Origin: Myxococcota bacterium
GTDB taxonomy: Bacteria > Myxococcota_A > UBA9160 > PR03
DNA: 64,000 bases
Reading direction: 5' to 3'
Assembly (NCBI GenBank): GCA_041611735.1
Contig: JBFIML010000007.1
Location: 55,997-119,996 of the forward strand
The position numbers and the translations under genes are program-made. The notes beneath the pieces were generated by a model that saw only the letters and a program-made list of their open reading frames with translations, had not been told where the DNA came from and did no database searches. Numbering within the stretch: the stretch's first letter is position 1; each line of letters begins with the position of its first letter. Positions 41,203 to 59,840 of this stretch are shown here, piece after piece.

Positions 41203-42266
41203 GTGAGACTCTCCACCAGCTCGAGATATCTGCTCTGGAAGCGGTCGAACGAGTATCCCGAAACCAGCTCCAGGCTACGCTGCCCGCATGCCGCGCGGCG
41301 CTCTCCGTCCTCGATCAGGCCCAGCAGCCGCTCGGCGATGGCCTCGTCGTCGCCCACCGGCACCAGATGGCCGTTGACCCCTTCCTGGACCAGCAAACGA
41401 TTGTCGCCGGCGTCCGTCGCGACCACCGGGAGGCCGGACGCCATGGCCTCCAGCAGCGTGTTGGAGAGGCCTTCGAAAAGCGAGGTGCAGAGGTACACAT
41501 CCGCATCCCGGTAGATCGACTCGACCTCCCGGGGATCCACGCGCAGCTCCACGTCCTCCTCCAGGGCCAGATCGCGGATCCAAGCGCGGCATCTCTGCTC
41601 CAAGGGACCGAGGCCCGCGATCACGTAGCGAATACGCCGGCGCGGCCCGAGCCGCCGCTTCACCCGTGCGATGCTCTTCAGCGCCGTCCGGTAGTCCTTC
41701 TGCTTCACGAGGCGGCCCACAGAGGCGACGCGCACCTCCTGTCCCGGGGCGCTGCGCCCCCCGGGCTTGCAGATCTCGATCCCGTTCGGGATCACGACGA
41801 GCTTCTGCGGGGCGAAGCCGCGGGCCACCAGAGCGGCGCGGCCAGCATGGGAGTTCGAGATCGAACACCGCAGCACCCGGTTGTGAAGCACTCGGAGCAC
41901 CGCTCGTTTGTGGACAGCGATTCGCGCGTTCCGAATCCCGCCACAGATGACGGGCACACCGCCCAGGGTGCCCGCCGCTGCCGCCATCAGGATATCCCCC
42001 GGAAGGTGGGCAAACAGCAGCTCGATCCGCTTCGATTTCAGGAACGAGGCGAACCAGCGCAACTTCTGACCCGGACTCCCGCGCAGGAAGATGGGGTCGA
42101 TCTTCGCCTGCGCGAGCGTATTTCGATGTCGCTGGTGACAGGGCCGATCTCGCATGGCCACGTAGTGGGTCTCGTGGGAATCAGCCAACGCCTTGGCGAG
42201 CAGGGCGCTCTGCTTCTCGGCTCCGCCCACACCCAGGGACCCGATCAGGACGCAGATTCGCCTCAT
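41199..42266 (-). CDS. Glycosyltransferase family 4
   Basis: SLGVGGAEKQ, IPNG, VGRLVKQKD and EGLSNTLLEAMASGLPVV. Confidence 0.92.
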   Translation of the reverse strand: MRRICVLIGSLGVGGAEKQSALLAKALADSHETHYVAMRDRPCHQRHRNTLAQAKIDPIFLRGSPGQKLRWFASFLKSKRIELLFAHLPGDILMAAAAGTLGGVPVICGGIRNARIAVHKRAVLRVLHNRVLRCSISNSHAGRAALVARGFAPQKLVVIPNGIEICKPGGRSAPGQEVRVASVGRLVKQKDYRTALKSIARVKRRLGPRRRIRYVIAGLGPLEQRCRAWIRDLALEEDVELRVDPREVESIYRDADVYLCTSLFEGLSNTLLEAMASGLPVVATDAGDNRLLVQEGVNGHLVPVGDDEAIAERLLGLIEDGERRAACGQRSLELVSGYSFDRFQSRYLELVESLT

Positions 42267-43654
42267 CCGGATCGGCCCGCTTCGCCCCGGCCCATGGCCA
42301 CCCGGTGCGCCGGGGGGTGCAGCGGGTACACGCAGACGGCGGCCAGGACGGCGTAGATCGGCTCGTAGCACATGTTGCCGTACACGAAGTAGGAAAGCGC
42401 CAGAAAGGCGAATGCACGCCGCACCTGAGTGTGTTCCAGCGGCTCCAGACCCCGGCCGCCGGGCCTCCAGGCGAAGATGGCCAGCAGGAACAGCACGTTC
42501 AGCCCGACGCCCACGAAGCCCGTCTCGGCCAGAATCATGCTCAGGGCCACCCGGTCGATCTCCCAACCCGGGTAGCGAACGCTCAAGGCCCCTGAAGCCC
42601 CGGGGAGCCGGCTATCCGAGGTGGCTCCGGGTCCGCGCCCGAGCAGCAGGTGCGCGGGATCCGTCGAATTCAACTCGTAGGCAAAGAGCACCGCACCGCC
42701 GCGCAAGAGTCGCCCGGCCGGCGTAAACTGGACGTTCTCGTCCCCGAACAAGTACCGGCTGATGTACTCTGGATCCAGGATGGAGCGCGCATAGGACGTC
42801 TGAGCAGTCCGTTTGTAGCTCATGTTGTAGATGGGCGTGAAGATGAGCAAGGCCACGGCGGGAAGAGCCACCGACGTGAGCACCACCTTCGGCCAGGCTT
42901 CCCGCCCGGCCTGCCACGCCCCCTGCAGCCCCAGGAATCCCAGCAGCGCCACCAAGTAGGGCACCGCAGCCTTCTGGTTTCCAACCCCGAGCGCCAGCAC
43001 CAGGAGCAGCAGCACCAGCACGGGAGGGGCGGCGATCACCCGGCGGCCGTTCATCCAATAGGCCAATACGATGCCGATGCAGTTCAGATGGAAGAAGAGC
43101 GTGATCGAGCCTACGAAGAAGAGACCCGTAACCCGGTCGCCGGGGTCGGGATCGTCGACGAACGGAACGACGGCAAGTCTCTGGACCACGCAGATCAGTG
43201 CCGACAACACACCGGCCGTCACCAAGAACGCATGAAGCCGGTCGCGGCCGTAATACCCGTAGACGCACTTCAGCGCCACGATGGCGCAGAACACCAGGAC
43301 GTAGCCTCGCTGCGCCACCAGAAACGAAGCCACGGTCGAGCCGTTCAGGAGCAGCGAAAGCCCCGACGTGACGAGGATCGCCGCGTAGATCCAGAGCAGG
43401 CTGCTGGGGATCCGCGGCCGCACCCGGGGCATCAAGAGGGTAACGGCCCCGGCGGCAAATGCGATGCACAGGAAGGGCAGCCACTTGACACCCGCTGGTA
43501 GACGGAAGTGGTAACGATCCACGTACGCAATCGGCACCAGCACGGGGACGAACGCCAGCCAGAAGGCGGCCCTTCGATGGCGGAGCGCCACGGCGGTGAG
43601 CATGATGAGAGCGGCTGTCGCCGCCAGATAGAGCAGCACCCGAGGCATCCCCAT
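42263..43654 (-). CDS. Probable Wzy polymerase / O-antigen-ligase-like membrane protein
   Basis: About 10-11 TM helices; DRVTGLF, LLLGRGPG and LAETG.VG; coupled to flanking GT genes. Confidence 0.65.
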   Translation of the reverse strand: MGMPRVLLYLAATAALIMLTAVALRHRRAAFWLAFVPVLVPIAYVDRYHFRLPAGVKWLPFLCIAFAAGAVTLLMPRVRPRIPSSLLWIYAAILVTSGLSLLLNGSTVASFLVAQRGYVLVFCAIVALKCVYGYYGRDRLHAFLVTAGVLSALICVVQRLAVVPFVDDPDPGDRVTGLFFVGSITLFFHLNCIGIVLAYWMNGRRVIAAPPVLVLLLLVLALGVGNQKAAVPYLVALLGFLGLQGAWQAGREAWPKVVLTSVALPAVALLIFTPIYNMSYKRTAQTSYARSILDPEYISRYLFGDENVQFTPAGRLLRGGAVLFAYELNSTDPAHLLLGRGPGATSDSRLPGASGALSVRYPGWEIDRVALSMILAETGFVGVGLNVLFLLAIFAWRPGGRGLEPLEHTQVRRAFAFLALSYFVYGNMCYEPIYAVLAAVCVYPLHPPAHRVAMGRGEAGRSG

Positions 43655-44808
43655 CACGCAACCCCGAGAGCCGCCAGGATCGTGGCAGCACGCTCTCGCC
43701 AGGTATAGCGGGCCAGGAAATCCTCCCGAGCGCTTCGTCCCAGCCTTGCGCCCAGCTTCGGCTCCTCCCGCAACGCTTCGATTCGGGCGACCCAGGCATC
43801 TAGATCGGCCGGTGATGCCAGCAGCGCGTTGGCTCCATCGCGCAGAACCTCTCTCAGCACTGGCAGGTCCGAGACGACCATGGGCTTGCCCGCGGCCATG
43901 TACTCGAAGACCTTCAACGGGGACATCCACCCCGCCACATTCACTCGCTTGCGGCCCACCAGGACGCGATTCTGATACGGTGCCAGCATCGCGTCGAACC
44001 GACCCAGATAGGCGTGCACCGAACCGGGCAGCACGTAGCCGTGGAACACGAGGTTGGCGAAGGGGGCGCGGCGTCGCCACGCGCGGACCTCGGCAGGAGA
44101 TCCACCCACCACGTGGAACTGGCAGCTCGGCAGCCGGGGCGCCAACTCGGCGATCAGCTCCATGCCCTTGCCGGGCGCCAGGCTCCCGATGTACCCCAGC
44201 TGGAACGCGGCGTTGCGCTTCGACAACTCGGCCCCCGCGGCCGAATCCAGTTGGCTCGCGCAGTCGATTGGGTCCGCCCCATCGGGTGCCACGAGGATCC
44301 GCTCTTCCAGGAGGTGCCCGAAGAGCCGCCTGTACTCGTCCCGCAGGGCAGCCGAGATCACCACCAGCCGCTCGAAAGTCCGGCTCTCGAAGATGCGTTG
44401 CTGCAGGAATCGCTCCAAACGATTCGAGGGCGGCTGATGCGCCTCGAGCACCATCGGAGCGCCCGCCCCGGGCGCCCGGGTCAGCAGAGCCAGTGCGTAG
44501 GAATCGCGCCCGTAGAAGAGGGTCGGGGGGGGCGCCCGGAACAGTCGCGCCTGAGTGCTCATGGCATAGAGCGCGCGACCCGCCACTGGAATCTGCGGTA
44601 CGGCCGCGCTGCGGACTTCGAAGCAGGGCCGGACTCCGTAGTACGCGAATACGTCCGGGAACGACTTTGCCTTGCGGCGGCAGAAGAGCACGACCCGATC
44701 GAAGCGCTCCGCGAGCGCCTCGCACATCTTCATGACCTGGATGCTGTTGGCCGTTCGCGACGGAACCAGGGAATTACTCAGATAGTAGATGCGTGTGGCG
44801 ACGCTCAA
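43654..44808 (-). CDS. Glycosyltransferase family 4
   Basis: PSRTANSIQVMKMCEA, YIGSL..GKG and SPLKVFEYMAAGKP; TTG start estimated (ORF extends to 44886). Confidence 0.88.
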   Translation of the reverse strand: MSVATRIYYLSNSLVPSRTANSIQVMKMCEALAERFDRVVLFCRRKAKSFPDVFAYYGVRPCFEVRSAAVPQIPVAGRALYAMSTQARLFRAPPPTLFYGRDSYALALLTRAPGAGAPMVLEAHQPPSNRLERFLQQRIFESRTFERLVVISAALRDEYRRLFGHLLEERILVAPDGADPIDCASQLDSAAGAELSKRNAAFQLGYIGSLAPGKGMELIAELAPRLPSCQFHVVGGSPAEVRAWRRRAPFANLVFHGYVLPGSVHAYLGRFDAMLAPYQNRVLVGRKRVNVAGWMSPLKVFEYMAAGKPMVVSDLPVLREVLRDGANALLASPADLDAWVARIEALREEPKLGARLGRSAREDFLARYTWRERAATILAALGVA

Positions 44809-44845
44809 CGGTGTGCTTCTGCGCGGGGGCGGTCTCGAGCGGGTG

Positions 44846-45955
44846 CTATCTGCCGCCGGAGGCCAATACGGATCGAATCGTTGCAAGCAGGAGCTTCAGG
44901 TCGTTCCAGATCGAGAAGCCCCGGTCGACGTACTCCAGATCGCTCCGCATCCACTCGACGAAGTCGGTCTCGCTCCTCCGGTGCGCCTGCCAGGTGCACG
45001 CGATGCCCGGAGTCACCGCAAACCTTCTGAGCTGCCAGGCCTCGTACTCGGACGGCAGCGGGGAGAGCGCACGAGGCCCGATCAGGGTCATTTCGCCCCG
45101 GATGACGTTGACCAGCTGGGGCAGTTCGTCGAGGCTGGCTTTGCGTAGTAAGCCGCCGATCGGGGTGAGCCGCGGATCGCCTTCGACCTTGAAGAGCGGT
45201 CCGGTCATCTCGTTGATTCCCTGGAGCTGGCCCTGCTTCTTGTGGGCGCCTCGACGCATGGTCCGGAACTTGTAGATCCGGAAGCGCCGGAGCCCTCGTC
45301 CGGTCCGTTCCTGCCTGTAGAGGACGGGGCCCGGCGAGGTCGCCTTCACAGCCGCGGCAATCCCCACCATCAGCGGGGAGAGCAGAGCGAGGCCGATCAG
45401 GGCCAGACAGATGTCCATGGCGCGCTTCCAAGCCGGCAGGGGTCGCTCGATCAGGGCGAGGGCTCCCCGGGAACTGCACGAGACCTCCGCGCGGCGCAGC
45501 GCGGGCGCCCGGCGAGCTGCGCGGGCCGACTCGCCGCGCCCGGCGGCGAAGCGGCGACCCTGCGTCGGGGTGTAGACACGCAGGGCCTCTTCGAGCCTTG
45601 CATTCGGAATCCTGGCTGCAACCCTACTGCGGATTCTGAACGAGAGTCGTCGAGCGCCGGCACCCGGGGTATTGGGCAGGAGGATTCCGAGCTGGTCGGC
45701 GCCGATTCGCCCAACCCGGTCCGTGGAGCGAACCAGCTTCGGCGCCTGCTGGGCCACGAACCGCTGCCAACCCGGCTTCGCGGGGCCCTGCGCGTTGCGC
45801 AGGATGAGCAGGGAGAGCTCGTAGCGACCGCGCTCCGCGCGAGCTCGCTCCGCTTCGAGCACCCCGCGAAAGGAGGCTTCGGAATGCGTTTCTTCCACGC
45901 TCTCGACGGCGGGACCCGGAGGGACCCGCAAGGTTTCTTCCCCTTGGGGCGCCAT
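44846..45955 (-). CDS. Priming sugar-1-phosphate transferase (Bac_transf) with an N-terminal degenerate GGDEF-like domain
   Basis: C-terminal KRAMDI, SPGPVLYRQER.G, KFRTM, DPRLT, SLDELPQL.NV..G.M.LIGPR, PGI and DL.Y; N-terminal F...LE.E.ARA.R...LSL...VRSTDRVGRIGADQLGILLP.T. Confidence 0.88.
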   Translation of the reverse strand: MAPQGEETLRVPPGPAVESVEETHSEASFRGVLEAERARAERGRYELSLLILRNAQGPAKPGWQRFVAQQAPKLVRSTDRVGRIGADQLGILLPNTPGAGARRLSFRIRSRVAARIPNARLEEALRVYTPTQGRRFAAGRGESARAARRAPALRRAEVSCSSRGALALIERPLPAWKRAMDICLALIGLALLSPLMVGIAAAVKATSPGPVLYRQERTGRGLRRFRIYKFRTMRRGAHKKQGQLQGINEMTGPLFKVEGDPRLTPIGGLLRKASLDELPQLVNVIRGEMTLIGPRALSPLPSEYEAWQLRRFAVTPGIACTWQAHRRSETDFVEWMRSDLEYVDRGFSIWNDLKLLLATIRSVLASGGR

Positions 45956-46245
45956 TGCGAGGAGCTCCTGGAAAATGAAACGCGTTGGAGGGAAATCACT
46001 ATACAATACGTTTTCGAAAAGCCGAGTCTGGTAGTTCCGGCGGACCATCGCCCGATCGTGCAATTCCAGAGATCCGGCGAGGGAGTACGCAGAGAGCTGC
46101 ACACCAGCGATGATCGCGGTGGGCCTCCGGAAGACCCGGAGTGAAGGCTCAATCCCGGTTCTCGCCCTGCCGTCCGAGCGGCCGGGACGTGCCGTGGTCG
46201 ACGTGGAACCGGAGCCGACGCGGAGCGAGAGCGTTCGAGATCCCC

Positions 46246-46731: not shown

Positions 46732-46748
46732 CCGCCGCCCTCCAGCCC

Positions 46749-48221
46749 ATGAAGAAGTTCGTCACGGACACCCTGTTCGTCACCGGCGCCGGGCTGCTCA
46801 ACCGGTCCAAGGGCATCCTCTTCATCCCCCTGATCATCGCGGCCGTGGGCTTCGATGGCTACGGCGCCTTCGTCCAAATCCTTCTCACCCTTCGCATCGT
46901 CAGCAGCCTCTCCACCCTCGAACTGGGGATGGGCTTTCCGCGCTTTGTCGCGCAGGTTCCGGCTCAGAATACTCGGGAGCTGGGCCGGCACTTCCACTCC
47001 GTCCTGCTCCCGACCCTCGTCTCCTCCGCCCTGGGCGGGTTGCTCTTCTATGCCGCTGCCGACGTCCTCAGCGCCCTCTTCTTCGACCATGGCTACCAGC
47101 AAAGCCTTCGTATCGCGGCTGTCGTGGTCTTCTCGAACAGCTGCTTCGCGACGGCTCGCAACTACCTTCGCGCCCGTGCCGAGTTCAAGCAGGAGTCCCT
47201 CCTCACGCTCTGCTACGAGATTCTGCCCTACCTCGGCTTCGTCCTGCTGGCGACGTCACGCGGGAATCTCCATTCCGGCATGCTTGCCTACGTCGCCATC
47301 GACGTAGCCGTCGCCCTCGGGATTCTCCTGTCCGTGCTTCGCAGTCTCTCCTGGGCCGCCCCGTCCTTCGCGCTTTCGAAACAGTACCTGCGCTACTCCT
47401 TCCCTCTCGCCCTCAGCCTGGTCGAAGGGGGCCTGCTGGCCCGGGCCGACCTCTATTTCATCAGCTACTTCCTCGGCCTCTCGGCGGTCGCCACCTACAA
47501 CGTGATCTATCGGGTCACCGAGCTGATCAGCTTCGTCAGCATCCCCATCCACGTGCAGCTCCTGACCTACCTGTCCCGGACCTGGGACCGTGGGCACCTC
47601 GAAGCCTCCCGCGAGATCATCCGAAAGACGCTGCTCTTCTTCCTCCTGCTGACCATGGGCATGCTCGCCTGCCTGGCGCTCTACTTCGAGCCCCTCTTCG
47701 TGCTCTTCCTGGGCAAGCCGCCGTCCGAAGCGCACCTCTGGCTCATCGTGATGCTGATCGGAGTCGGCATGATGGCCAATACCGCACGGCGCTTCCTGTA
47801 CGTGCTGATCCGCCTCCATCGCACGACCCAGCACGAACTCTTCTACCAGTTGGCGGGCCTGACCCTGAACGCCACCTGCAACTACTTCCTCATTCCGATC
47901 TATGGCCTGGCGGGAGCCGCATTCTCTACGCTGGTCAGCTATGCTCTCATGTTGCCGCTCATCAGTCTGCACTATCCGCTCGGTTTGAAGCGGGCGTTCG
48001 TGGGCCATGCCCTCTCGTTCGCGGTTCTGGCCCTGGTGATCGTGCCGCTGCGCTACGCAATCCCCCCGGACAGCCTGCCGCTGTTGTGCTTGAGCGCTGG
48101 GGTGGCCTACGCCGCTTATCTGGCGCTGGTCGGTTTCTTCAAGAGGAAGCTTCTGATTTCGCTGAAGGACGAGCTGCTCGAATGGAGAAGGCTGACCTAC
48201 TCGGCACCGGTGTCCACCTGA
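46749..48221 (+). CDS. Wzx-type oligosaccharide flippase
   Basis: About 14 TM helices; G...YG, ELG.G..RF, YLRYSFPL, D..FI..FLG...V..Y and LIPIYGLAGAA.ST. Confidence 0.85.
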   Translation: MKKFVTDTLFVTGAGLLNRSKGILFIPLIIAAVGFDGYGAFVQILLTLRIVSSLSTLELGMGFPRFVAQVPAQNTRELGRHFHSVLLPTLVSSALGGLLFYAAADVLSALFFDHGYQQSLRIAAVVVFSNSCFATARNYLRARAEFKQESLLTLCYEILPYLGFVLLATSRGNLHSGMLAYVAIDVAVALGILLSVLRSLSWAAPSFALSKQYLRYSFPLALSLVEGGLLARADLYFISYFLGLSAVATYNVIYRVTELISFVSIPIHVQLLTYLSRTWDRGHLEASREIIRKTLLFFLLLTMGMLACLALYFEPLFVLFLGKPPSEAHLWLIVMLIGVGMMANTARRFLYVLIRLHRTTQHELFYQLAGLTLNATCNYFLIPIYGLAGAAFSTLVSYALMLPLISLHYPLGLKRAFVGHALSFAVLALVIVPLRYAIPPDSLPLLCLSAGVAYAAYLALVGFFKRKLLISLKDELLEWRRLTYSAPVST

Positions 48222-49417
48222 ACTCGTTCCTCCGTCTCGGGTTCTTCCTGGACTATCGGCCGAAGCTCACGCTCGACCTCTCTTCGGTGGATCCGGAGCG
48301 GTATGCCGGGACCCACGTCGAGGATCTCCTGCGCCGCCAGGCCGAACTCTTCCGTGCGGCGGTGGTCAGCCGCTTCGAGAGCCATCGCCGACACCTGATC
48401 CCGTTGAGCGGAGGCCTGGACAGCCGGGCCATTCTGGCCGTCCTGGTCGAGTGCACCGAGGCGCGGAACCTCCACACCTGCACGTTCGGCACGCCGGGGA
48501 CCTACGACTACGATCTGGGCTGTCAGGTCGCCCAGCGGCTCGGCACCCTGCACGCCTGCTACCCGCTCACCGAACACGTCTACACGCTCGCCGAGCTGCT
48601 GGACGTGTCCTCTCGAATCGAGCACCAGACCATCCTGTTCCACCACCCACCGCTGGCCGACATGGAGCGCCGCTTCGGCGGCCACGTGGTGTGGTCGGGC
48701 TTCCTGGGCGACAAGCTCGCCCTGCCGCCGGAGACGACCGTGGGCGACGAGCAGGCCAAGCTGAACTTCCTGGGCAAGAACACCTACGTGCGCTCCACGG
48801 ATCTGACCCGCCCGGGCGGAGCCGAGCTCTCGGCGGCACTCGCGATCCAGCCGGCGGTCCGGTCGCGACTGCTGCTCGAAGAGGAGCTCAACCTCCGCTA
48901 TCGCCAGCTCAAGTTCATCGCGCCGCACGTGCTGGCGGCGGGATTCGACTACCGGACCCCGTTCCTGGATCGAGAGCTGGTCGACTTCATGCTGAGCGTC
49001 CCGCTCTCCATGCGACGCGGCGCCCGCTTCTATCGCCAGTTCCTGTCGAGGACCTTTCCGGGGCTCTTCGACCTCGGGACCAAGGCCAACGAGGGCCTCC
49101 CGCTGGGCGCCCGCAAGCCGCGGGTCCTGTACCGGAAGGTCCGACGCAAGCTCCAGGGCGCCATGGGGACGCACTGGACCCGAGGCCTGGATCCCATGCT
49201 CAACTACCTGGATTTCGGCCCGGCGCTCCGGAGCCGCCCGGATCTCCGGAACCTCGTCTCATCGAGCCTCGCCGATCTCGAGAAACGCCGGGTGGTGGAT
49301 TGGATCGATCTGGGTTCGCTCTGGAAGCGTCACCTGACTGGCGCCGTCGATCACAGCGACGCCCTCATCGTCCTGACCTCGCTCGAAATCCACCTGAAGG
49401 CAGGCATGAAGCTCTAG
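48182..49417 (+). CDS. Asparagine-synthetase-like ATP pyrophosphatase/amidoligase, synthetase domain only
   Basis: PLSGGLDSR PP-loop, TFG, GFLGD and RTPFLD; no Cys1 glutaminase domain; start 48182 or 48210. Confidence 0.75.
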   Translation: MEKADLLGTGVHLNSFLRLGFFLDYRPKLTLDLSSVDPERYAGTHVEDLLRRQAELFRAAVVSRFESHRRHLIPLSGGLDSRAILAVLVECTEARNLHTCTFGTPGTYDYDLGCQVAQRLGTLHACYPLTEHVYTLAELLDVSSRIEHQTILFHHPPLADMERRFGGHVVWSGFLGDKLALPPETTVGDEQAKLNFLGKNTYVRSTDLTRPGGAELSAALAIQPAVRSRLLLEEELNLRYRQLKFIAPHVLAAGFDYRTPFLDRELVDFMLSVPLSMRRGARFYRQFLSRTFPGLFDLGTKANEGLPLGARKPRVLYRKVRRKLQGAMGTHWTRGLDPMLNYLDFGPALRSRPDLRNLVSSSLADLEKRRVVDWIDLGSLWKRHLTGAVDHSDALIVLTSLEIHLKAGMKL

Positions 49418-49444
49418 CGCCTGCCCTCCACGGGAACCCGAACG

Positions 49445-51175
49445 ATGTTCGTCCTCGCTTGCCGCAAGACAGAACAGCAGCTGGGCTGGCCGGCCTTCGC
49501 GGAACGCCGCTGGACCGCGGGCGGCTTGCACCTTCTGTTTGCCAGCGACTCGGGGTCCGGTCGGTACCAGGACGCTCCCGGCGGCTTCTCGTACGTCGAG
49601 TCACCGGCCGCGCTGGATCCCTCGGATGGGACGCCCCCGTATACCACCATCCGGTACGACGGCCGGGGCAGCGGCGTCCTCGAGGTCTCGGCCGGGCCCA
49701 GCTCCGGCTCGACCGTCTACTACCACCTGGACGGGGCGGGAGGCTTCCATTGCGCTTCCCACGTGCGCCTGCTCGGCGCCCTGGGCATTGCGCTGGAAGA
49801 GAACACGGAGCTCCTGCCGGACTACTTCCTGTACCGCTACGTGACGCCCCCTCACACGCTCTACCGGGGCATCCAGCAGCTCGCCAAGGCGGATCTGGAA
49901 GTGAGCTTCTCCGGGGACCGTTGCGTGATCCGGAGCGTGCGGCCCTACCCGGTCTTCCCTGCCGGGGAAAGTGCGGCGACGGACGAGGCCGGAATCGTCG
50001 AGGGTGCGCTGCGGATCCTGGACGCCTCGTTGGAGCGCTTGCGGAAGAGCCGGGAACGCTTGTGTGTGCCCTTGAGCGGGGGAATGGATTCTTCCGTGCT
50101 GTTCCGGTTGGCGCAGAAGAAATTCGGTCTGAACGAGTGCTACTCGGCCGGCTATCCCTTCGAGGCCGATTCCGACAACGTGGAGAAGCAATACGCCGTG
50201 TCGGCGGCCGCTGCCCTGGGGGCACGGCATCGCTACTACGCGGCGACCCACAACGAGTATCTCGAAGCCGTCGTGCGTTCCATCGCGGCGGCGGAGGAAC
50301 CGATCCATCATCTCCAGTCCGCGATGTTCTATCTGCTGTTCCGGGACGCGGTGCCGCAAGAGAGGGATCGGGTGATTCTGGGTGTCGGCGCCGGAGGGGT
50401 GTTCGGAACGCCCCTCCAGCAGCTGGTGCATGCATACCGCACGCGCCAGGCCGCGTACGATGCATTGGCCAGGAGGCCCGTGAAGCAGGCCGTGGAGATC
50501 GCTTCCCGGCTCACCGGAAGAGGACGCAGGCTCGTCAAGGCAATCGATCTGAGCGGACGGCTCGAGCTGCCCATGGAAGACGAACGAAACGTCGTCTGGT
50601 CCGTCGATGCCTACGGCTCTCCCGAATGGATCCGCGAGCGTTTCCGGTGCTCTGCCGCCTCGCTGGTGAGGAGCCGGACCGACTTGTTGCGGCCCCATGA
50701 AGAGCGGGGACTGCTGGCGCAGATCGCGGTCATCGACCTCTTCGACAAGACGCAGTTCATCTGGGCGAAGCTGCTCCAGAGCCAGGGACGGGTGGCCTAC
50801 TACCCCTTCATGCAGCAGGACCTGCACCACCACCTGCTGGCGAGCCCCTGGCCGCTCCGGCTCCAGTCGAACAAGCACATCCTGGCGGAGGTGGCGCGAC
50901 GACTCGAGGTTCCGGAGTTCATCCTGCGACGGGCGAAGTCCGGCTTCGGCGTGCGTCGCAAGGATTGGGCCTTGCGAAACGGCCCACTCGAACCGCTGGT
51001 TCCCCTGGCAACGAAGGTGGTGGGCGAAGAGGCGCTCCGATCGATGCAGTCCGCCCAACCGCAACGGGCCATGACGTTCTGGTGTCTGCTCAACTATGGG
51101 CTCTGGAAGCGGCTGTGCATCGACCGGGAGCCGGCCGACGCGCTGGTGGCGGAGCTCCGGGAGCGGCTGGATTGA
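49445..51175 (+). CDS. Asparagine-synthetase-like protein with a degenerate Ntn domain
   Basis: PLSGGMDSS, EEPI, G.GA, YPF, KHIL and R.KSGF; the N-terminus lacks the catalytic Cys1 (MFVLAC). Confidence 0.78.
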   Translation: MFVLACRKTEQQLGWPAFAERRWTAGGLHLLFASDSGSGRYQDAPGGFSYVESPAALDPSDGTPPYTTIRYDGRGSGVLEVSAGPSSGSTVYYHLDGAGGFHCASHVRLLGALGIALEENTELLPDYFLYRYVTPPHTLYRGIQQLAKADLEVSFSGDRCVIRSVRPYPVFPAGESAATDEAGIVEGALRILDASLERLRKSRERLCVPLSGGMDSSVLFRLAQKKFGLNECYSAGYPFEADSDNVEKQYAVSAAAALGARHRYYAATHNEYLEAVVRSIAAAEEPIHHLQSAMFYLLFRDAVPQERDRVILGVGAGGVFGTPLQQLVHAYRTRQAAYDALARRPVKQAVEIASRLTGRGRRLVKAIDLSGRLELPMEDERNVVWSVDAYGSPEWIRERFRCSAASLVRSRTDLLRPHEERGLLAQIAVIDLFDKTQFIWAKLLQSQGRVAYYPFMQQDLHHHLLASPWPLRLQSNKHILAEVARRLEVPEFILRRAKSGFGVRRKDWALRNGPLEPLVPLATKVVGEEALRSMQSAQPQRAMTFWCLLNYGLWKRLCIDREPADALVAELRERLD

Positions 51176-51402
51176 TGCGAGGTCCCCGGGGGTGGCGCGA
51201 TGCCCCGGAAACGGGCGATCCCTGGGGGGCGCAGCCCCTCACCGGAGCGACCTGCAGGGGTCCGAGACCCGGCCTCACCGAGGCTCCTTCGGGCCTCTCC
51301 CTGCCCCCCTGCTGCGGCTTCCTGGATCGTCCAGGCGCCGGGATTCCCTTTACAGGACATGCCTTTTCCACCAGACTCCACGGTTCGGGCATCAATCTCC
51401 GT

Positions 51403-52455
51403 TTGAGGATCCCCCACCCCGTGTCCCTGCTCCTCCTCCTGCTCTTCGGACTGGGCGGCTGCGCCTCGGCGCCGGCGCCGGCTCCGGCGGTCGCCCCGGG
51501 CCCCGAAGCCCACAGTCCGGCCAACGACCTGCGCCTCGCCCGGCTCTGGCAGGAGCGCACCGATCCGGCCAGCGCGTCCGACTTCTCGATCGGTCCCGGC
51601 GACCTTCTGGAGATCTCGGTTCCGGGGCTGGTGGAGCTCGAGAAGCACACTTCGCGGGTCTCCAGCGAGGGGACCATCTCGCTGCCCCTGCTCGGCACGA
51701 TCCCCGCCGGGGGACGCACCGAGGACGAGCTGGCCGAGGACATCCGGCTTCGACTCCAGGCCTCGGTGATGTACGACCCCTCCGTCGTCGTGTTCCTGGC
51801 CGAGTCCCGCCACCGCTCGATCGGGGTGACGGGTGCCGTCTACAAGCCCGGCTTCTACGACGCCGCGAGCCAGCGCGACACGATCCTCGACCTGATCTCC
51901 CTGGCGGGCGGCACCACGGAGACCGCGGCGTCGCGCGCCCTCCTGATTCCGGCTGCCCGCACGTCGGGAAGCCCGGGCATCGCTCCAGCCGCCCTGGAAA
52001 CAACGTCCCCGGAACCGCTTCGGCGCAGTGACGCCATCGCCATCGAGTTCGATAACGCGACCCACGCGGGCCACCCCTCCTACCTCAATCTCCCGGTCCG
52101 CCCGGGTGACGTGATCGTGATTCCGGAGCGCGGCCATGTCCTCGTCAAGGGCTGGGTGCACCAACCGGGCTCCTACGAGATCTCGGCCGGCCTCACCGTG
52201 CTGGGCGCCGTGACGGCCGCGGGAGGGATGCGCTATGCGGCGGACAAGAGCGCCGTCGAGCTGATCCGCAAGCAGGACGACGGCCAGCTCATTTCTCACC
52301 GCTTCGACCTCCGGAGGCTGCAGAGCGGCGCGGAGGCAGATGTCCCGGTGCAGTCGGGAGACGTCATCGACATCTCCCATTCGACGCCGAAGCTGATCGC
52401 CTTCAGCTTTGTGGACTTCCTGACGCGCGTCTTCAGTCTCGGCGCGCGTCTCTGA
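51403..52455 (+). CDS. wza: Polysaccharide export lipoprotein (Wza/OPX) with SLBB domains
   Basis: LGGC lipobox; IGPGDLLEISV, GTISLPLLG, VTGAVYKPG.Y and V.GWV..PG.Y; TTG start estimated. Confidence 0.85.
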   Translation: MRIPHPVSLLLLLLFGLGGCASAPAPAPAVAPGPEAHSPANDLRLARLWQERTDPASASDFSIGPGDLLEISVPGLVELEKHTSRVSSEGTISLPLLGTIPAGGRTEDELAEDIRLRLQASVMYDPSVVVFLAESRHRSIGVTGAVYKPGFYDAASQRDTILDLISLAGGTTETAASRALLIPAARTSGSPGIAPAALETTSPEPLRRSDAIAIEFDNATHAGHPSYLNLPVRPGDVIVIPERGHVLVKGWVHQPGSYEISAGLTVLGAVTAAGGMRYAADKSAVELIRKQDDGQLISHRFDLRRLQSGAEADVPVQSGDVIDISHSTPKLIAFSFVDFLTRVFSLGARL

Positions 52456-52465
52456 TCGAGATCCC

Positions 52466-54745
52466 ATGCCGGACTACCCTCCGCTGACACCGCTCGACTC
52501 CCGGCTGCCCCAGCGCCACGAGGACCCCCGGGCTCCCGCGCCGTGGACCCCTCCCTTCGACGAGCCGCTGCTCCGCGACTACGCGCGGATCCTGAAGAAG
52601 CGCAGGGGGTTGATCGCGGGCGTGTTCCTGGCGACGCTCGCCCTGGTGGCCTCGGCCACGCTGCCTTCCACTCCCATCTACACTGCGGAGACCCTGCTTC
52701 TCATCGAGCCCCAGAACCCGCAGATCATCGACATCCCCCAGGTGCTTGGGGACACGCTCGGCAAGGCCGACTACTACGAGACCCAGTACGAGATCCTGAA
52801 GAGCCGCAGCCTCGCCGAGCGCGTGATTCGCCAGCACGGGCTGAGCGACGCGGAACTCGGCGGCCGCAGACCGAGCGCGCTCGCCAGCGCCATCCGGCTG
52901 GTCCGGACGATCCCGAGCTCGCTGTTCTCGAACGGAGCGGGCAGCGCCGAGGATCCGACCCCCGAGCAGATCGCTGCCAAGCGCGTAAACGCCTACCTCG
53001 ACGCGCTCTCCGTCGGACCCTCCCGGGACACCCGTCTCGTCAAGCTCAGCTTCCGCAGCCCCGATCCGCTGCTGGCCGCCCGCTTGATCAACGCCCATGC
53101 CCGGGCCTACATCGAGCAGGGCCCGCTGATGCGCGCGCGGGCCAGCGAAGAAGCCCGTGCCTTCCTGGAGGAGAAGCTGCAAGAGCTCAAGGATCGAGTA
53201 GGCGGCGCGCAGGCCGATCTGAATGCCTACAGCCGTGAGGAAGGCATCGTCTCCCTCGACGACAAGGCCAACGTGGTCATCGAGCGCCTGGCCGACCTCA
53301 ACGCACGACTGACCGCGGCCGAAGCGGAGCGCGTCGCCCGCGAGGCCGAGTTCCGCCTCATCCAGGAACGGAGGCCAGGGTCCCTGCCGGCCGTGCTCGC
53401 CAGCCCCCTGGTCACGACCTTGAAGCAGGAGCTGGCGCGACTCGAAGGCGAACAAGCCTTCCTCTCCACGCGATTCTCCCCGGGTTATCCGAGGCTGGCG
53501 CAGCTCCAATCGCAGATCGCCGAGAGCCGACGCCGCCTCAGCACCGAGATCCGCACCATCGTGGACGGGATCGAATCCTCCTTTCTGGCCGCCAAGGCGC
53601 AGGAAGAAGACCTGCGGGCGCGGGTCGACCTGCAGAAGATCGAGGCCCTCCGGCTCAAGGATGCTTCTGTGGAGTATGCGATGCTGGAGCACGACCTCAA
53701 GGCCAGCCGCCAGCTCTACGAAAACGTACTCGGGCGCATCAAGCAGACGGAGATCGCCGTGGAGCTGCGCGACTCCAACGTCTTCATCGTGGACCCAGCG
53801 CATCCTCCCCTTCGGCCCAGCGGTCTGAGCACCAAGCTGATCTTCGCGCTGGCGGGGGTGCTCGGGCTGATCGCCGCCATCGGTCTCGCCCTGATCGCGG
53901 AGTTTCTGGACAGTCGGATCCGGAACACCGAGGACGTCGAGCGACAGCTGGGTCTTCCCAGCCTGGGCGCGGTGCCGGACTTCCTGAAGAGCGCAGCGGC
54001 CCTGCCCACCGCAGCCCGGCGCCAGCTGCTCGCCGCACGCAGCGCCGAAGGCGGGGCCCCTCGACCCGGACTCCTGCACAGCCCGGCGCCCGGCACCCCC
54101 TCACCCAACCCGGTGGCCGTCGAGGCCTACCGGACCGTGCGAACGAACATCCTGCTCTCCCAGGCCGGCCGCTCGCCGCGCACGATTCTCTTCACGAGCG
54201 GCGCCGCTTCCGAAGGCAAGACGGTCACCACCGTCAACACCGCTGCGATGTTCGCCCAGCTCGGCGGTCCCGTCCTCGTGATCGACGCCGACCTGCGCAA
54301 GCCTGGCTGCCATCGGCTGCTGGGAATCGAGAACCTGGCCGGCCTGACCGAGATCCTGACCGGAGGCGACCTGACCCCGGACTTCCTCAAGTCGATCGAT
54401 GCGGGCTTCTCCTTCCTCTCCAGCGGGAAGAAGCCGCCCAACCCGACGGAGCTGCTCGGTTCGACCCGCATGCGGCAGTTCCTGGCCAGCGCCCGGGACC
54501 GCTTCGAATACATCCTGATCGACGGCCCGCCCATGCTGCCGGTGAGCGACAGCGTGGTGCTTGCCACGCTCGTCGATGGCGTCGTGTTGGTGGCCGATCA
54601 ACAGAAGACGCCGCGCCACGTGCTGCGGAGCGCCCAGGCGCGGCTCACCTACGCGCGAGCCAAGGTGCTCGGGGTCGTCCTGAACCGCGCCGACGTGGAG
54701 AACGAGGACTACTCCTATTTCGTCGGGTGGCAGCCCTCCGCCTGA
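52466..54745 (+). CDS. wzc: Polysaccharide co-polymerase / BY tyrosine kinase
   Basis: Two TM helices flanking a coiled coil; EAYRT.RTN, TSG..SEGKT, IDADLRKP, PPNP.ELL and IDGPP. Confidence 0.92.
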   Translation: MPDYPPLTPLDSRLPQRHEDPRAPAPWTPPFDEPLLRDYARILKKRRGLIAGVFLATLALVASATLPSTPIYTAETLLLIEPQNPQIIDIPQVLGDTLGKADYYETQYEILKSRSLAERVIRQHGLSDAELGGRRPSALASAIRLVRTIPSSLFSNGAGSAEDPTPEQIAAKRVNAYLDALSVGPSRDTRLVKLSFRSPDPLLAARLINAHARAYIEQGPLMRARASEEARAFLEEKLQELKDRVGGAQADLNAYSREEGIVSLDDKANVVIERLADLNARLTAAEAERVAREAEFRLIQERRPGSLPAVLASPLVTTLKQELARLEGEQAFLSTRFSPGYPRLAQLQSQIAESRRRLSTEIRTIVDGIESSFLAAKAQEEDLRARVDLQKIEALRLKDASVEYAMLEHDLKASRQLYENVLGRIKQTEIAVELRDSNVFIVDPAHPPLRPSGLSTKLIFALAGVLGLIAAIGLALIAEFLDSRIRNTEDVERQLGLPSLGAVPDFLKSAAALPTAARRQLLAARSAEGGAPRPGLLHSPAPGTPSPNPVAVEAYRTVRTNILLSQAGRSPRTILFTSGAASEGKTVTTVNTAAMFAQLGGPVLVIDADLRKPGCHRLLGIENLAGLTEILTGGDLTPDFLKSIDAGFSFLSSGKKPPNPTELLGSTRMRQFLASARDRFEYILIDGPPMLPVSDSVVLATLVDGVVLVADQQKTPRHVLRSAQARLTYARAKVLGVVLNRADVENEDYSYFVGWQPSA

Positions 54746-55857
54746 AGGCGCTGGCCAGGAGCGTGCGGACCCAAGCTGGCCTCGAACGCGGCCAGGAAGC
54801 GCCCCACGTCCCGCTCGTCCATGGCTCCCATCACCGCCACGCGGAAGATCTGCCCGAGCAGCCCCCGCTGCCCCGGATAGACCACGAAGCCGGCCTGCTT
54901 GAGACGCGCGTGGAGCAGGTCGTAGCCGATCCCCTCGGGCAGCTGGAAGGAGGTGAGGCTGCTCGCATACTCCCGCTCGCTTCCGAGCAGCAGGCGGGCC
55001 CCCCGCGCCTGGAGCCCCGTCCGCAGCAGGCCGGACAGGGTCCGATAGTGCCGCCTCCGCCCTTGCCAGCCACCGCCCTCCTCGAGCTCCGCGAGGGCCT
55101 CGCGCAGTGCGTAGGTGGGGTGGACGGCAGGCGTGAAGAGAGGGTGTGCCTGCTCTTGAGCTCGATAGTGTGCGAAGAGATCCAGATACAGCCCCACGGC
55201 GCCGGATTGCCGCGCCTCCAGGGCAGCGCGTCTCGCCACCACGAAGGCCACCCCAGGCGCTCCGTGCAGGCACTTGTTGGCGGTGGCCGCGCAGGCCTCC
55301 AGGTTCCAGCCGGCAAAATCGATCTCCTCGGCCCCGAAGCTGCTCACCGCGTCGACCAGCAGCCGGACGCCTCGGCGCACACCGATCTCCCCGAGCGCCG
55401 CCAGATCGTTCAGCCGGCCCGTCGTCGTCTCGTGATGCACCGCCAGGATCCACCCGATGTCCGGATCCCGGTCGAGAGCCTGCTCGATCCGGGCGAGGTC
55501 CGGAGGCTCGGTCCAACCCGCCTGGATCAGGGTGTGGGCCCGTCCCACGCTCCCGAGCATCGCGGCGATCCGCTCGCCGTAGGTCCCGTTGGCAACGACG
55601 AGGGCCTTGCCCTCCCGAGGCACGAGCGAGGTGGCCATCGCCTCCACCGCGGCGGTTCCCGAGCCGGTCAGCAGCACCGCCGTGAAGTCTCCGGCCGCGC
55701 TGGCGTAGACGCTCTCGAGCCCGCGGCGCACCTCGCCCTGGAGCTCGGCGAACTCCGGCTCCCGGTGGCAGACGTCGGGCGACAGGAGAGCCCGACGCAC
55801 CCGCTCCGAGAGCACCACCGGGCCTGGATTCATCAGGACACGGCGCGCGGTCTGCAT
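54715..55857 (-). CDS. 2-aminoethylphosphonate transaminase (biosynthetic, PhnW/AepZ-type)
   Basis: LMNPGPV, CHRE.EF, GSGTAAVE, NGTYGER, VHHETTTG.LN, DAVSSFG, NKCLHG.PG and FTP. Confidence 0.9.
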   Translation of the reverse strand: MQTARRVLMNPGPVVLSERVRRALLSPDVCHREPEFAELQGEVRRGLESVYASAAGDFTAVLLTGSGTAAVEAMATSLVPREGKALVVANGTYGERIAAMLGSVGRAHTLIQAGWTEPPDLARIEQALDRDPDIGWILAVHHETTTGRLNDLAALGEIGVRRGVRLLVDAVSSFGAEEIDFAGWNLEACAATANKCLHGAPGVAFVVARRAALEARQSGAVGLYLDLFAHYRAQEQAHPLFTPAVHPTYALREALAELEEGGGWQGRRRHYRTLSGLLRTGLQARGARLLLGSEREYASSLTSFQLPEGIGYDLLHARLKQAGFVVYPGQRGLLGQIFRVAVMGAMDERDVGRFLAAFEASLGPHAPGQRLQAEGCHPTK

Positions 55858-58659: not shown

Positions 58660-58889
58660 GGTGTCCGACCTGCGTCGAGGGGAAAGCGAAGCTTCGGAAT
58701 GGGCGACGGCTGATCGTACCACAGGCGCCCTGGCGCGCGTCCGGTCCCGCCGCGCAGCCGAAAGCGTCATGGCGCGCAAGGCGTTGCGCGGCGGATTGCA
58801 CGGGAGGTGCGCGTTGGCCTGGCGATCCGCTGCGGGAAAGCTCCGGCTGCCGGGAATCCCCTCGGGGCTCCGTCCCCGCCGAAGAGTCC

Positions 58890-59775: not shown

Positions 59776-59840
59776 ATAGTCTTGCGAAGCCCTGGCCGAT
59801 ACCAGGGATGCAGGAACGCCCCCCATCGGGAGAAGAACCC

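Follow-up and report, generated by a model that had tools for sequence, protein, structure and literature searches.

Amide ligases of the AsnB superfamily and of surface glycans

Glutamine-dependent enzymes of the AsnB type, including E. coli AsnB, human ASNS and the XrtA/PEP-CTERM amidotransferase (TIGR03108), share a synthetase fold with an SGGxDS motif and are also found in polysaccharide loci; WbpS is a glutamine-dependent amidotransferase of this type encoded in such a locus. Beta-lactam synthetase and CarA consist of two domains, the N-terminal one being inactive and Cys-less; after adenylation, an amine other than ammonia released from glutamine attacks, and a single small molecule of an antibiotic pathway is cyclised to a lactam. 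The hydroxyamidotransferase TsnB9 (PDB 7ylz) acts in trichostatin biosynthesis. On glycans, amide formation is described for Cj1438 of the C. jejuni HS:2 capsule, a GT2 with a fused C-terminal TupA-like ATP-grasp ligase; the ligase amidates GlcA while the chain is growing, a step on which the next glycosyl transfer depends (PMC11800379). Here we report two further members of the AsnB superfamily, AsnL1 and AsnL2, for which we estimate, judging from sequence, a probability of about one in two that they act as distinct ATP-dependent amide ligases in the cytoplasm, within Wzx/Wzy exopolysaccharide assembly.

Two AsnB-like proteins without a glutaminase

The window, a stretch of 64,000 nucleotides from a Myxococcota bacterium (contig JBFIML010000007.1), encodes both proteins in adjacent plus-strand ORFs, delimited as in the first-pass annotation. 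AsnL1 (P0001; 48182..49417, +) comprises 411 aa and a synthetase domain only, with SGGLDS at residues 76-81, whilst the 576-aa AsnL2 (P0002; 49445..51175, +) has two domains, a Cys-less (Met-Phe) Ntn-like N-terminal domain and a synthetase domain with SGGMDS at 211-216. The start of AsnL1 overlaps by 40 nt the gene of a Wzx-type flippase (46746..48221, +), and AsnL2 is followed by genes for a Wza-type outer-membrane exporter with Poly_export and SLBB domains (50965..52455, +) and a Wzc-type chain-length regulator and tyrosine kinase (52466..54745, +). The Wza ORF as called overlaps AsnL2, its real start lying later. A priming polyprenyl-phosphate sugar-phosphate transferase is encoded on the opposite strand (44846..46102, -; Bac_transf 189 bits; TIGR03025 226 bits, below the cut-off of 295.55).

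Both proteins match the Pfam family Asn_synthase (PF00733; 58.7 bits for AsnL1 and 85.1 bits for AsnL2, cut-off 21), and they score far under the equivalog cut-offs of TIGR01536 (44.6 and 70.7 versus 267.1) and TIGR03108 (24.6 and 33.5 versus 816.9). The first-pass annotation had noted that each retains SGGxDS and that one lacks the Ntn domain and the other Cys1, and Pfam, alignments and models bear this out. S76, G77, G78, D80 and S81 are invariant among 40 aligned members of the AsnL1 family, as are S211, G212, G213 and D215 among 42 members of the AsnL2 family; H154, H155, R241, H249 and K301 of AsnL1 and H288, H289, Q291 and K498 of AsnL2 are likewise invariant or nearly so. Pfam identifies no GATase domain in AsnL1, the AlphaFold (AF2) model of which is a single synthetase domain, and the ORF is not truncated because its homologues begin at the same place. 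The N-terminal domain of AsnL2 is beta-rich and folded, and the protein begins with MFVLAC; in the 21 rows shown of the 42-member alignment Met-Cys occurs at the start in none and Met-Phe in 19, and M1 and F2 are invariant across the 12 closest members. With a pLDDT of 93.6 for either protein and pTM values of 0.91 and 0.93 for AsnL1 and AsnL2, respectively, the models predict that both are intact and confidently folded.

The structural relatives of the two proteins are confined to AsnB, ASNS, beta-lactam synthetase, carbapenam synthetase and TsnB9. The top Foldseek matches of AsnL1 are ASNS, AsnB, beta-lactam synthetase, TsnB9 and CarA, and the best match of AsnL2 is TsnB9 (E 1.6e-13, TM 0.62), with which AsnL1 and AsnL2 share 14-16% identity and which belongs to a natural-product rather than a glycan context. 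Beta-lactam synthetase and CarA, the N-terminal domains of which resemble that of AsnL2 in lacking the cysteine, are among its best sequence and fold matches (~13-16% identity; for CarA E 1e-05 with a single sequence and 4.9e-18 with a profile, TM 0.57). The RRAKSGFG segment of AsnL2 places K498 opposite K449 of AsnB, the family motif RpKSGFG aligning with RQKEQFS of AsnB and RKKIGI of CarA; a profile search did not align K301 of AsnL1 with K449. Two further motifs depart from the AsnB pattern in AsnL2: HHxQ stands where AsnB has the substrate loop TTxR, and the SGEGSD motif reads GVGAGG, its acidic residues being lost in AsnL2 and its closest clade (GVGAGG, GTGATG, GHGSGG) while the family consensus retains GxGAD. 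Given the altered SGEGSD motif, catalytic details of AsnL2 may differ.

Conserved subfamilies linked to glycosyltransferases

Sequence comparison indicates that neither protein is a decayed copy and that the two represent separate conserved subfamilies, both uncharacterised. AsnL1 has 436 matches at E<=1e-3 among 8000 scored candidates, and nearly all of the 120 matches listed measure 397-435 aa (family ~400 aa); AsnL2 has 211 cluster representatives at E<=1e-30, and the closest homologues of the two share 50-62% identity with them. Relatives of AsnL1 reside in polysaccharide loci of many phyla, archaea included, and the AsnL1-AsnL2 pair recurs in the same order in two Ignavibacteria genomes. 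Our literature search found no paper on either subfamily, and since no characterised member was found, the chemistry proposed below is taken from superfamily membership.

The window encodes three GT4 glycosyltransferases on the minus strand, GT4a (40042..41202), GT4b (41199..42566) and GT4c (43654..44886, the true start probably lying some 30 codons inside the ORF). In phmmer searches of 79 AsnL1 loci, GT4c was matched in 37, GT4b in 36, the priming transferase in 10, Wza in nine and Wzc in eight; the neighbours recognised by Pfam include GT2, Wzx, Wzy and hexapeptide acyltransferases. Among 44 loci, the gene that immediately follows AsnL1 encodes a GT4 in 18, and counting neighbours on both sides brings the number to 22; the two ORF calls often overlap slightly. 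The best window match of these downstream GT4s is GT4c in 16 of the 18 and GT4a or GT4b in none; the 16 proteins are 24-40% identical to GT4c, 12 of them 31-40%. In the window itself the two genes are not neighbours: 3.3 kb separates AsnL1 from GT4c, which is encoded on the other strand. Two proteins combine AsnL2 and GT4 in a single chain, one as GT4 plus AsnL2 (P0181, 1154 aa) and one as AsnL2 plus DUF362 plus GT4 (P0200, 1541 aa), and AsnL2 is directly followed by a GT4 gene in three further loci (L083, L084 and the Ignavibacteria locus L029). Three of five AsnL2-linked GT4s best match GT4b of the window, weakly (26-31% identity, 82-103 bits), so that the AsnL2-GT4b link is suggestive only. 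Full-length AsnB-type amidotransferases adjoin AsnL1 in three loci (L008, L019 and L021).

In their coupling or fusion to a glycosyltransferase, the AsnL1-GT4c pairs and AsnL2-GT4 fusions resemble Cj1438, and the job, ATP-dependent amidation of a sugar carboxylate as the chain grows and ahead of the next transfer, is likely to be the same. The folds, by contrast, are unrelated, Cj1438 being an ATP-grasp enzyme of acyl-phosphate chemistry and AsnL1 and AsnL2 PP-loop adenylating proteins; the amine donors of Cj1438 are ethanolamine-P and serinol-P.

A proposed role in repeat-unit amidation

By analogy with the chemistry of the family, each ligase would convert a carboxylate into an acyl-adenylate by means of the SGGxDS PP-loop and a conserved lysine, and an amine would then attack the adenylate. 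As neither of them can release ammonia from glutamine, the nucleophile would be either free ammonia or a preformed amine, for instance an amino acid. The functional partner of AsnL1 would be GT4c, and that of AsnL2 probably an enzyme resembling GT4b; since each ligase would thus be coupled to a GT4, the repeat unit most likely receives its amide while lipid-linked, after one glycosyl transfer and before another. The first-pass annotation had likewise proposed glutaminase-less ligases that place an amide on the glycan from an amine other than glutamine-derived ammonia, a reasonable reading that the polysaccharide loci and the pairing and fusion with GT4 strengthen.

We infer that the carboxylate is most likely that at C6 of a uronic acid belonging to the repeat unit. 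No UDP-sugar 6-dehydrogenase is encoded on the contig of the window, two being found elsewhere in the genome, and such a gene lies within 10 kb in only 10 of the 79 AsnL1 loci. Locally, uronate is hinted at only by an AlgL-like polysaccharide lyase (PF05426; 38943..40076, +), which suggests uronic acids in the polymer, and by GT4a and GT4c, which weakly match TuaC/TuaH; elsewhere, an archaeal AsnL1 has a heparinase II/III-like gene next to it, similarly hinting at a uronate polymer.

The polarity of the amide might be reversed, the carboxylate of a small acid or amino acid being adenylated and joined to the amine of an amino sugar, so that not a uronamide but an N-acyl or N-aminoacyl sugar would result. 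We regard this as possible though unlikely. AsnB (with aspartate), beta-lactam synthetase and CarA all adenylate a carboxylate of their small-molecule substrate, as this polarity would have it, and the coupling to GT4 suits any modification on a growing unit. That the local signs of a uronate supply are weak does not count against it, and ATPgrasp_ST genes directly upstream of AsnL1 (two in locus L011, and again in L012) suggest a multi-step amino-acid decoration. Against it, the locus of the window shows no recognisable sugar aminotransferase or deacetylase from which a free sugar amine could come, and the lyase gene and TuaC/TuaH-like hints point to an acidic polymer.

Aminoethylphosphonate as a possible amine

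The first-pass annotation had also proposed that one or both ligases join the amine of 2-aminoethylphosphonate (AEP) to a glycan carboxylate, yielding an amide-linked phosphonate with a free phosphonate group. A complete AEP pathway does lie ~3.5 kb downstream of AsnL2, with only wza and wzc between: an AEP aminotransferase (54715..55857, -; TIGR03301 364.9 bits, cut-off 360.8), the phosphonopyruvate decarboxylase Ppd (55833..56996, -; TIGR03297 390 bits, cut-off 312.5) and a PEP mutase with a C-terminal MobA-like NTP_transf_3 domain of the PntC type (57019..58779, -; TIGR02320 376 bits, above cut-off; PF12804 41.8 bits). AEP is the C-P analogue of ethanolamine phosphate. The amine used by the Campylobacter GlcA ligase is given as ethanolamine phosphate or serinol phosphate (PMC11800379), and the CapA-like (PGA_cap) gene directly upstream of AsnL1 in five of 44 loci would, speculatively, fit a phospho-amine donor that is subsequently dephosphorylated. 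No CMP-AEP transferase is recognisable, which also favours an amide link: as the annotation had observed, the window holds no recognisable LicD or CDP-alcohol transferase, and the wider search agrees, with LicD (PF04991) unmatched in the genome, the seven genome matches of PF01066 all lying off the window's contig, and no homologue at E<=1e-5 of the CDP-alcohol transferases that adjoin pepM in two relatives. At 95% completeness and in 118 contigs, however, the genome may carry such a transferase unassembled or from an unrecognised family.

The comparative evidence lends no support to AEP as the amine. Neither ppd nor the AEP aminotransferase was found in any of the 79 AsnL1 loci, and pepM-pntC gives one match (L042, a search match alone). 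PEP mutase exceeds its cut-off in three of 48 AsnL1-bearing genomes, with one further fragment, and never inside the locus; this is close to background, the phosphonate pathway being put at about 5% of bacterial genomes in PMC8942020. In six other AsnL2 loci (L025, L029 and L081-L084), no annotated gene was seen to be pepM. Conversely, a pepM-pntC/ppd cassette occurs without an AsnL1 or AsnL2 orthologue in four of 60 relatives, three of the four having the aminotransferase too. Finally, the mutase is fused to a PntC-type nucleotidyltransferase, an enzyme that produces CMP-AEP for phosphonoester transfer (PMC6697681); this points to the ester route that the annotation had left open, and CMP activation would be superfluous for an amide ligase. 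A link between the ligases and the phosphonate genes is thus possible but not supported, and AEP as the amine is doubtful indeed; the adjoining genes would most likely supply a separate, CMP-AEP-dependent phosphonoester decoration.

Non-glycan and non-catalytic readings

Lactam formation or peptide macrocyclisation, with a location in the exopolysaccharide locus by chance, appears very improbable. CarA and beta-lactam synthetase, likewise devoid of Cys1, do rank among the best structural matches of AsnL2, and there are weak NCBIfam matches to macrolactam and lasso cyclases (NF033561, 33.8 and 26.6 bits; NF033535, 20.7 bits, AsnL1 only), but the scores lie far under the cut-offs of 300 and 525 bits. 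Moreover, members of each subfamily turn up repeatedly in polysaccharide loci of different phyla, paired with and fused to GT4, and no lasso-peptide or beta-lactam genes were recognised among the annotated neighbours. That AsnL1 and AsnL2 have lost ligation and act as scaffolds or regulators of a partner GT4 is the most remote reading of all: the tight association with GT4 and the loss of the SGEGSD acidic residues in P0002 and its closest clade would suit it, but the PP-loop is invariant in the 40 AsnL1 and 42 AsnL2 family members, together with many further invariant or near-invariant polar residues, a pattern typical of active enzymes.

Two AsnB-like ligases in an exopolysaccharide locus

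Genes in the window were called by combining third-position G+C with Pfam and NCBIfam matches. The first-pass annotation had described two AsnB-like genes that both keep an SGGxDS ATP-pyrophosphatase loop, one product being devoid of the Ntn domain and the other of Cys1, and this description is confirmed. AsnL1 (411 aa) is encoded at exactly 48182-49417 (+) and consists of the synthetase domain only; AsnL2 (576 aa) follows at 49445-51175 (+) and starts with MFVLAC. Both genes are located inside a Wzx/Wzy-type exopolysaccharide (EPS) locus that comprises a PMT_2 protein (36679-38820), an AlgL-like lyase (38943-40076, +), the three glycosyltransferases GT4a (40042-41202, -), GT4b (41199-42566, -) and GT4c (43654-44886, -), a Bac_transf priming enzyme (44846-46102, -), Wzx (46746-48221, +), Wza (50965-52455, +; the start of this ORF is uncertain) and Wzc (52466-54745, +). 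Immediately beyond the locus lies a full 2-aminoethylphosphonate (AEP) cassette on the minus strand, made up of an AEP aminotransferase (54715-55857, -; TIGR03301, 364.9 bits against a cut-off of 360.8), Ppd (55833-56996, -; 390 bits) and a PEP mutase with a C-terminal NTP_transf_3 domain (57019-58779, -), the pepM-pntC fusion.

The G+C content of the window is about 70%; it falls to 65-68% in the stretch from 34 to 54 kb and amounts to 69-76% in the flanks. None of 60 related genomes encodes an orthologue of AsnL1 or of AsnL2 (the best other match to AsnL2 scores 133 bits compared to 739 for the self-match), and AsnL2 was not found at E ≤ 1e-60 in any of 400 other genomes of the phylum. On account of its lower G+C and of these two genes without orthologues in relatives, the EPS locus (34000-54000) looks horizontally acquired. 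A sequencing-run look-up found the window DNA in marine and sediment metagenomes, and listed no RNA runs containing it.

A cytochrome P450 gene (35363-36670, +), with the haem motif FGRGEHVCLG and a Pfam p450 score of 74 bits, lies at the edge of the EPS locus. It does not show up in plain ORF lists, where longer ORFs in other phases cover it, and came to light when third-position G+C was plotted by frame; to find a P450 next to an EPS locus is unusual. Shortly past the phosphonate genes there is a gene for a 1021-aa multicopper oxidase (60826-63891, -).

AsnL1 and AsnL2 define two glutaminase-less subfamilies

Fold, Pfam score and PP-loop all place AsnL1 and AsnL2 in the AsnB superfamily. Against the Asn_synthase model PF00733 (cut-off 21), the two score 58.7 and 85.1 bits, respectively. 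The PP-loop reads SGGLDS in AsnL1 (residues 76-81), where the S, G, G, D and final S are invariant in a 40-member alignment, and SGGMDS in AsnL2 (residues 211-216), where the S, G, G and D are invariant and the final S nearly so in a 42-member alignment. The AlphaFold model of AsnL1 (pLDDT 93.6, pTM 0.91) is a synthetase domain alone and that of AsnL2 (pLDDT 93.6, pTM 0.93) has two domains. Foldseek returned 23 matches at E ≤ 0.001 for each of them, all AsnB-superfamily chains, including ASNS, AsnB, beta-lactam synthetase, TsnB9 and CarA for AsnL1; the nearest folds to AsnL2 are TsnB9, CarA, beta-lactam synthetase and AsnB, at TM 0.50-0.62. The kinship between the two proteins is remote, with a BLASTP alignment limited to the PP-loop region (E 0.011).

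The AsnL1 family is uniform in length. Among 8000 scored candidates 436 relatives were retrieved at E ≤ 1e-3, and the best 120 of these share 40-58% identity with AsnL1, all except one being 397-435 aa long; the nearest homologues, P0004-P0012, share 51-57%, and P0009 is encoded on a 138-kb contig. They have a common start at one N-terminal helix (NLNSFLKLGYFLDY), the glutaminase N-domain is absent from AsnL1, and the 8000 candidates include no longer forms, which is weak evidence. Invariant motifs of the family are SGGxDSR, TFGTPG, QTxLFHHPP, WSGF, APHVL and SLEIHLKA; K301, a candidate counterpart of the catalytic lysine K449 of AsnB, is nearly invariant and lies beyond the end of the profile alignment of AsnL1 with AsnB. 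The AsnL1 homologue P0063 is found in the Protein Atlas solely in clusters of 'asparagine synthase domain-containing protein'.

AsnL2 retains the N-terminal domain. Since the protein starts with MFVLAC, the N-terminal nucleophile Cys of class II glutaminases is missing, and 19 of the 21 printed rows of the 42-member alignment begin with Met-Phe and none with Met-Cys; the 12 closest members all have M1 and F2. Within positions 1-190 the only conserved polar residues are E119 and T138, and with hardly any polar conservation in this domain the glutamine site has not been kept. In a profile alignment with solved structures, the family motif RpKSGFG aligns with RQKEQFS of AsnB (K449) and RKKIGI of CarA, which provides AsnL2 with an equivalent of the catalytic lysine K449, while HHxQ falls on the TTxR substrate loop of AsnB. 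A word-based search detected just eight AsnL2 relatives; an exhaustive phmmer search raised this to 2029 (E ≤ 1e-3), and at E ≤ 1e-30 there are 211 cluster representatives, mostly 560-600 aa long. The nearest homologues, P0123-P0126, share 51-62% identity with AsnL2.

Judged from their sequences, neither protein is a decayed asparagine synthetase. Both differ from the glutamine-hydrolysing asparagine synthases (TIGR01536, cut-off 267.1) in scoring just 44.6 (AsnL1) and 70.7 bits (AsnL2) and in having no Cys1, and they also fall far short of the XrtA/PEP-CTERM EPS amidotransferase (TIGR03108; 24.6 and 33.5 bits, cut-off 816.9). Glutaminase-less AsnB homologues have been described in antibiotic and peptide pathways, and AsnB-type amidotransferases in polysaccharide loci. 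AsnL1 and AsnL2 stay well below the models for macrolactam cyclases (NF033561; 33.8 and 26.6 bits, cut-off 300) and, matched by AsnL1 only, lasso-peptide cyclases (NF033535; 20.7 bits, cut-off 525), and they have polysaccharide genes as neighbours.

Both families occur in polysaccharide loci

A scan using one genome per species identified 249 stretches with AsnL1 relatives, of which 79 loci, from many bacterial phyla as well as Halobacteria and Thermoplasmata, were kept. Cultured strains with an AsnL1 homologue include Catalinimonas sp. 4WD22 (L001), Shouchella xiaoxiensis DSM 21943 (L003), Bacillus sp. 1P02SD (L006) and Heliorestis acidaminivorans DSM 24790 (L034). When the window proteins were compared with the six-frame ORFs of these loci using phmmer, GT4c was matched in 37/79 and GT4b in 36/79, followed by the priming transferase (10), Wza (9) and Wzc (8). 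A neighbour census by clustering and Pfam in the best 48 loci yielded GT4 in 35, hexapeptide acyltransferases in 10, Wzx in 10, GT2 in 8, PGA_cap in 5 (6 including one unclustered member) and a full-length glutamine-type AsnB in 4.

AsnL2 resides in the same type of locus: L083, L084 and the Ignavibacteria locus L029 contain GT2, GT4 and hexapeptide transferase genes. The metagenome scan for AsnL2 used a narrow alignment of the closest members, with generic patterns, as a broader alignment had no conserved stretch, and five of the 53 loci listed (L080-L084) are true members by HMM score. Two Ignavibacteria genomes (L025 and L029) share the AsnL1-then-AsnL2 order of the window, and matching contig sizes suggest that P0010/P0124 (15 kb) and P0012/P0125 are probably further instances of the pair, each on one metagenome contig. 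Near AsnL1, phmmer gave six 'AsnL2' matches; the family HMM confirms those in L025 and L029, and the remaining four come from different AsnB-type proteins. An obligate AsnL1-AsnL2 heteromer as a general rule can be dismissed, given that AsnL2 is absent from 77 of the 79 AsnL1 loci and stands in L081-L084 without a neighbouring AsnL1.

Two kinds of upstream neighbour deserve mention. A PGA_cap (CapA-like) gene directly precedes AsnL1 in five of 44 loci (L005, L008, L016, L017 and L023), with overlapping ORF calls in several of them; by analogy with Campylobacter, and speculatively, PGA_cap would, if it were a phosphatase, fit phospho-amine donors. In the Bacteroidales polysaccharide loci L011 and L012 the gene directly upstream encodes a PF14397 'Sugar-transfer associated ATP-grasp' protein (two in tandem at L011:7592-9974, one at L012:8757-9974), so that putative amide ligases of two unrelated types are direct neighbours there.

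The ligases are tied to GT4 glycosyltransferases

The main new result is the tie between these ligases and GT4 glycosyltransferases, which for AsnL2 is physical. Adjacency was counted in 44 of the 48 AsnL1 loci, omitting four with no gene call over the match (L009, L027, L028 and L045) and scoring L038 and L046, centred on an overlapping ORF, as 'other'. A GT4 gene lies directly downstream of AsnL1 in 18/44 loci and adjoins it on either side in 22/44, often with a slight overlap of the ORF calls. GT4c of the window is the best match for 16 of the 18 downstream GT4s, with 31-40% identity (181-299 bits) in 12 cases and 24-27% in four; GT4a or GT4b is never the nearest, and two of the 18 match none of the three. 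Because of this preference, AsnL1 and a GT4c-type transferase constitute a conserved module, both halves of which are present in the window locus at a distance of 3.3 kb. A complex prediction for AsnL1 and GT4c (score 0.00, mark 0.32) gives no verdict.

AsnL2 is fused to GT4 in two proteins, P0181 (1154 aa; GT4 and AsnL2) and P0200 (1541 aa; AsnL2, DUF362 and GT4), and the gene after AsnL2 encodes a DUF362-GT4 protein in L083 (L083:6922-9633) and a GT4 in both L084 and L029. AsnL2-DUF362-GT4 is a recurring unit (L083 and P0200). Three of the five AsnL2-linked GT4s are nearest to GT4b of the window, at just 26-31% identity, and these alignments point weakly to a GT4b-like partner. A literature search returned nothing on glutaminase-less AsnB subfamilies paired with or fused to GT4; the pairing names a candidate partner glycosyltransferase for each ligase.

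A proposed role in amidation of the repeat unit

AsnB-type enzymes work in two steps: their PP-loop domain first activates a carboxylate as the acyl-adenylate, which is then attacked by an amine. By extension, AsnL1 and AsnL2 would adenylate a carboxylate for subsequent attack by an amine; as neither can make ammonia from glutamine, this would be either free ammonia or an amine formed beforehand. Given the coupling to GT4, the reaction most likely takes place while the lipid-linked repeat unit is being assembled. Based on this coupling and on the functional analogy with Campylobacter Cj1438, we propose that AsnL1 and AsnL2 would each add a single amide to the repeat unit, at the stage handled by the partner GT4. 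For the C. jejuni HS:2 capsule, Cj1438 joins a GT2 to a TupA-like ATP-grasp ligase, and the latter uses ethanolamine phosphate or serinol phosphate to amidate GlcA while the chain is being extended; Cj1435 then strips the phosphate, and the next transferase takes the amidated sugar only (PMC11800379). The likeness is functional and organisational only and denotes no evolutionary kinship: the AsnL1 and AsnL2 models are PP-loop AsnB folds, in contrast to the TupA-like ATP-grasp ligases of the Cj1438C type.

We infer that the carboxylate is the C6 of a uronate. The locus contains an AlgL-like lyase, a heparinase II/III-like gene neighbours AsnL1 in an archaeon, and GT4a and GT4c weakly resemble TuaC/TuaH, all of which are hints in this direction. 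Counting against a uronate, no UDP-sugar dehydrogenase is encoded on the window's contig, although two are found elsewhere in the genome; among AsnL1 loci this enzyme occurs in 3/48 of the best by clustering and Pfam, and in 10/79 by a wider search. A possible alternative to amidation of a uronate is the reverse polarity, in which the enzyme would adenylate a free amino acid and the nucleophile would be an amino sugar.

On many surface glycans of bacteria and archaea, uronic acids bear amino acids or amines in amide linkage, and the ATP-grasp domain of Cj1438 is the sole well-studied ligase of this kind that our literature search found. Methanococcus AglU may be an AsnB-domain threonine ligase; the search returned no matches for AglU and MMP1084. 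Glycine is amide-linked to guluronate of the Vibrio cholerae VPS and threonine to mannuronate of a methanococcal N-glycan, and the relevant passages of PMC12993940 and PMC11407970, respectively, do not name the ligase. The AsnL1 and AsnL2 subfamilies make good candidates for a further class of glycan amide ligases, unrelated to that of Cj1438. On a bolder reading, of low probability, the AsnL1-GT4c module, which spans bacterial and archaeal phyla, would represent the missing enzymes that load amino acids and amines onto surface-glycan uronic acids.

Is AEP the amine?

The first-pass annotation had suggested that the ligases could join the amine of AEP or of an amino acid to glycan uronates, and had listed co-occurrence with pepM as a check. 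Such a reaction would make this the first exopolysaccharide with an amide-linked phosphonate, free and non-hydrolysable, and the genome offers some grounds for it. The AEP cassette adjoins the EPS locus, and AEP is the C-P analogue of ethanolamine phosphate, the amine of the Campylobacter ATP-grasp ligase. As that annotation had remarked, neither LicD nor a CDP-alcohol transferase is recognisable in the window: LicD has no match in the whole genome (95% complete, 118 contigs), none of the seven genome matches to CDP-alcohol transferases is on the window's contig, and the transferases linked to the cassette in relatives have no homologue in this genome. A full AEP pathway thus sits beside an EPS locus in a genome without a recognisable LicD or cassette-linked CDP-alcohol transferase.

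Comparative genomics nevertheless makes AEP an improbable substrate, and the expected co-occurrence did not materialise. Ppd and the AEP aminotransferase were each matched in none of the 79 AsnL1 loci and PepM-PntC in a single one (L042). PEP mutase exceeds the cut-off in three of 48 AsnL1-bearing genomes, plus one fragment, which is close to the figure of roughly 5% of bacterial genomes that PMC8942020 gives for the phosphonate pathway. Conversely, four of the 60 relatives possess the pepM-pntC/ppd cassette, three of them with the aminotransferase too, and have neither AsnL1 nor AsnL2; their cassette is found beside CDP-alcohol phosphatidyltransferase and CTP_transf_1 genes or within a Wzx/Wzy locus. 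The fusion itself had been taken to favour a CMP-AEP route, in agreement with the account in PMC6697681, which describes Ppm fused to PF12804 as the commonest form of the mutase and associates it with CMP-AEP formation. Support for AsnL1 and AsnL2 as a phosphonate-attaching system is consequently low.

A sulfatase-family membrane protein (32203-34152, -) and a 348-aa protein (34287-35333, +) were considered as an AEP transferase and rejected, seeing that this genome and four relatives have 18-38 sulfatase matches each and that in two relatives (G038 and G040) both proteins lie near each other and near other sulfatases, and not near pepM. The former is extended at its N-terminus by a long stretch and shows weak local similarity to EptA/MCR; the latter has no Pfam match.

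Directly past pepM-pntC lie genes for a Methyltransf_23 methyltransferase (58890-59675, +) and a radical SAM protein (59808-60758, +), which may modify AEP (by methylation, for instance) instead of the sugar chain. CTP_transf_1 and an FGGY sugar kinase come after the pepM-pntC/ppd/aminotransferase cassette in L152 (G038) and L154 (G033), two loci of related genomes, and L154 also has a recognisable CDP-alcohol phosphatidyltransferase; this arrangement looks like a phosphonolipid-type module, unlike that of the window.
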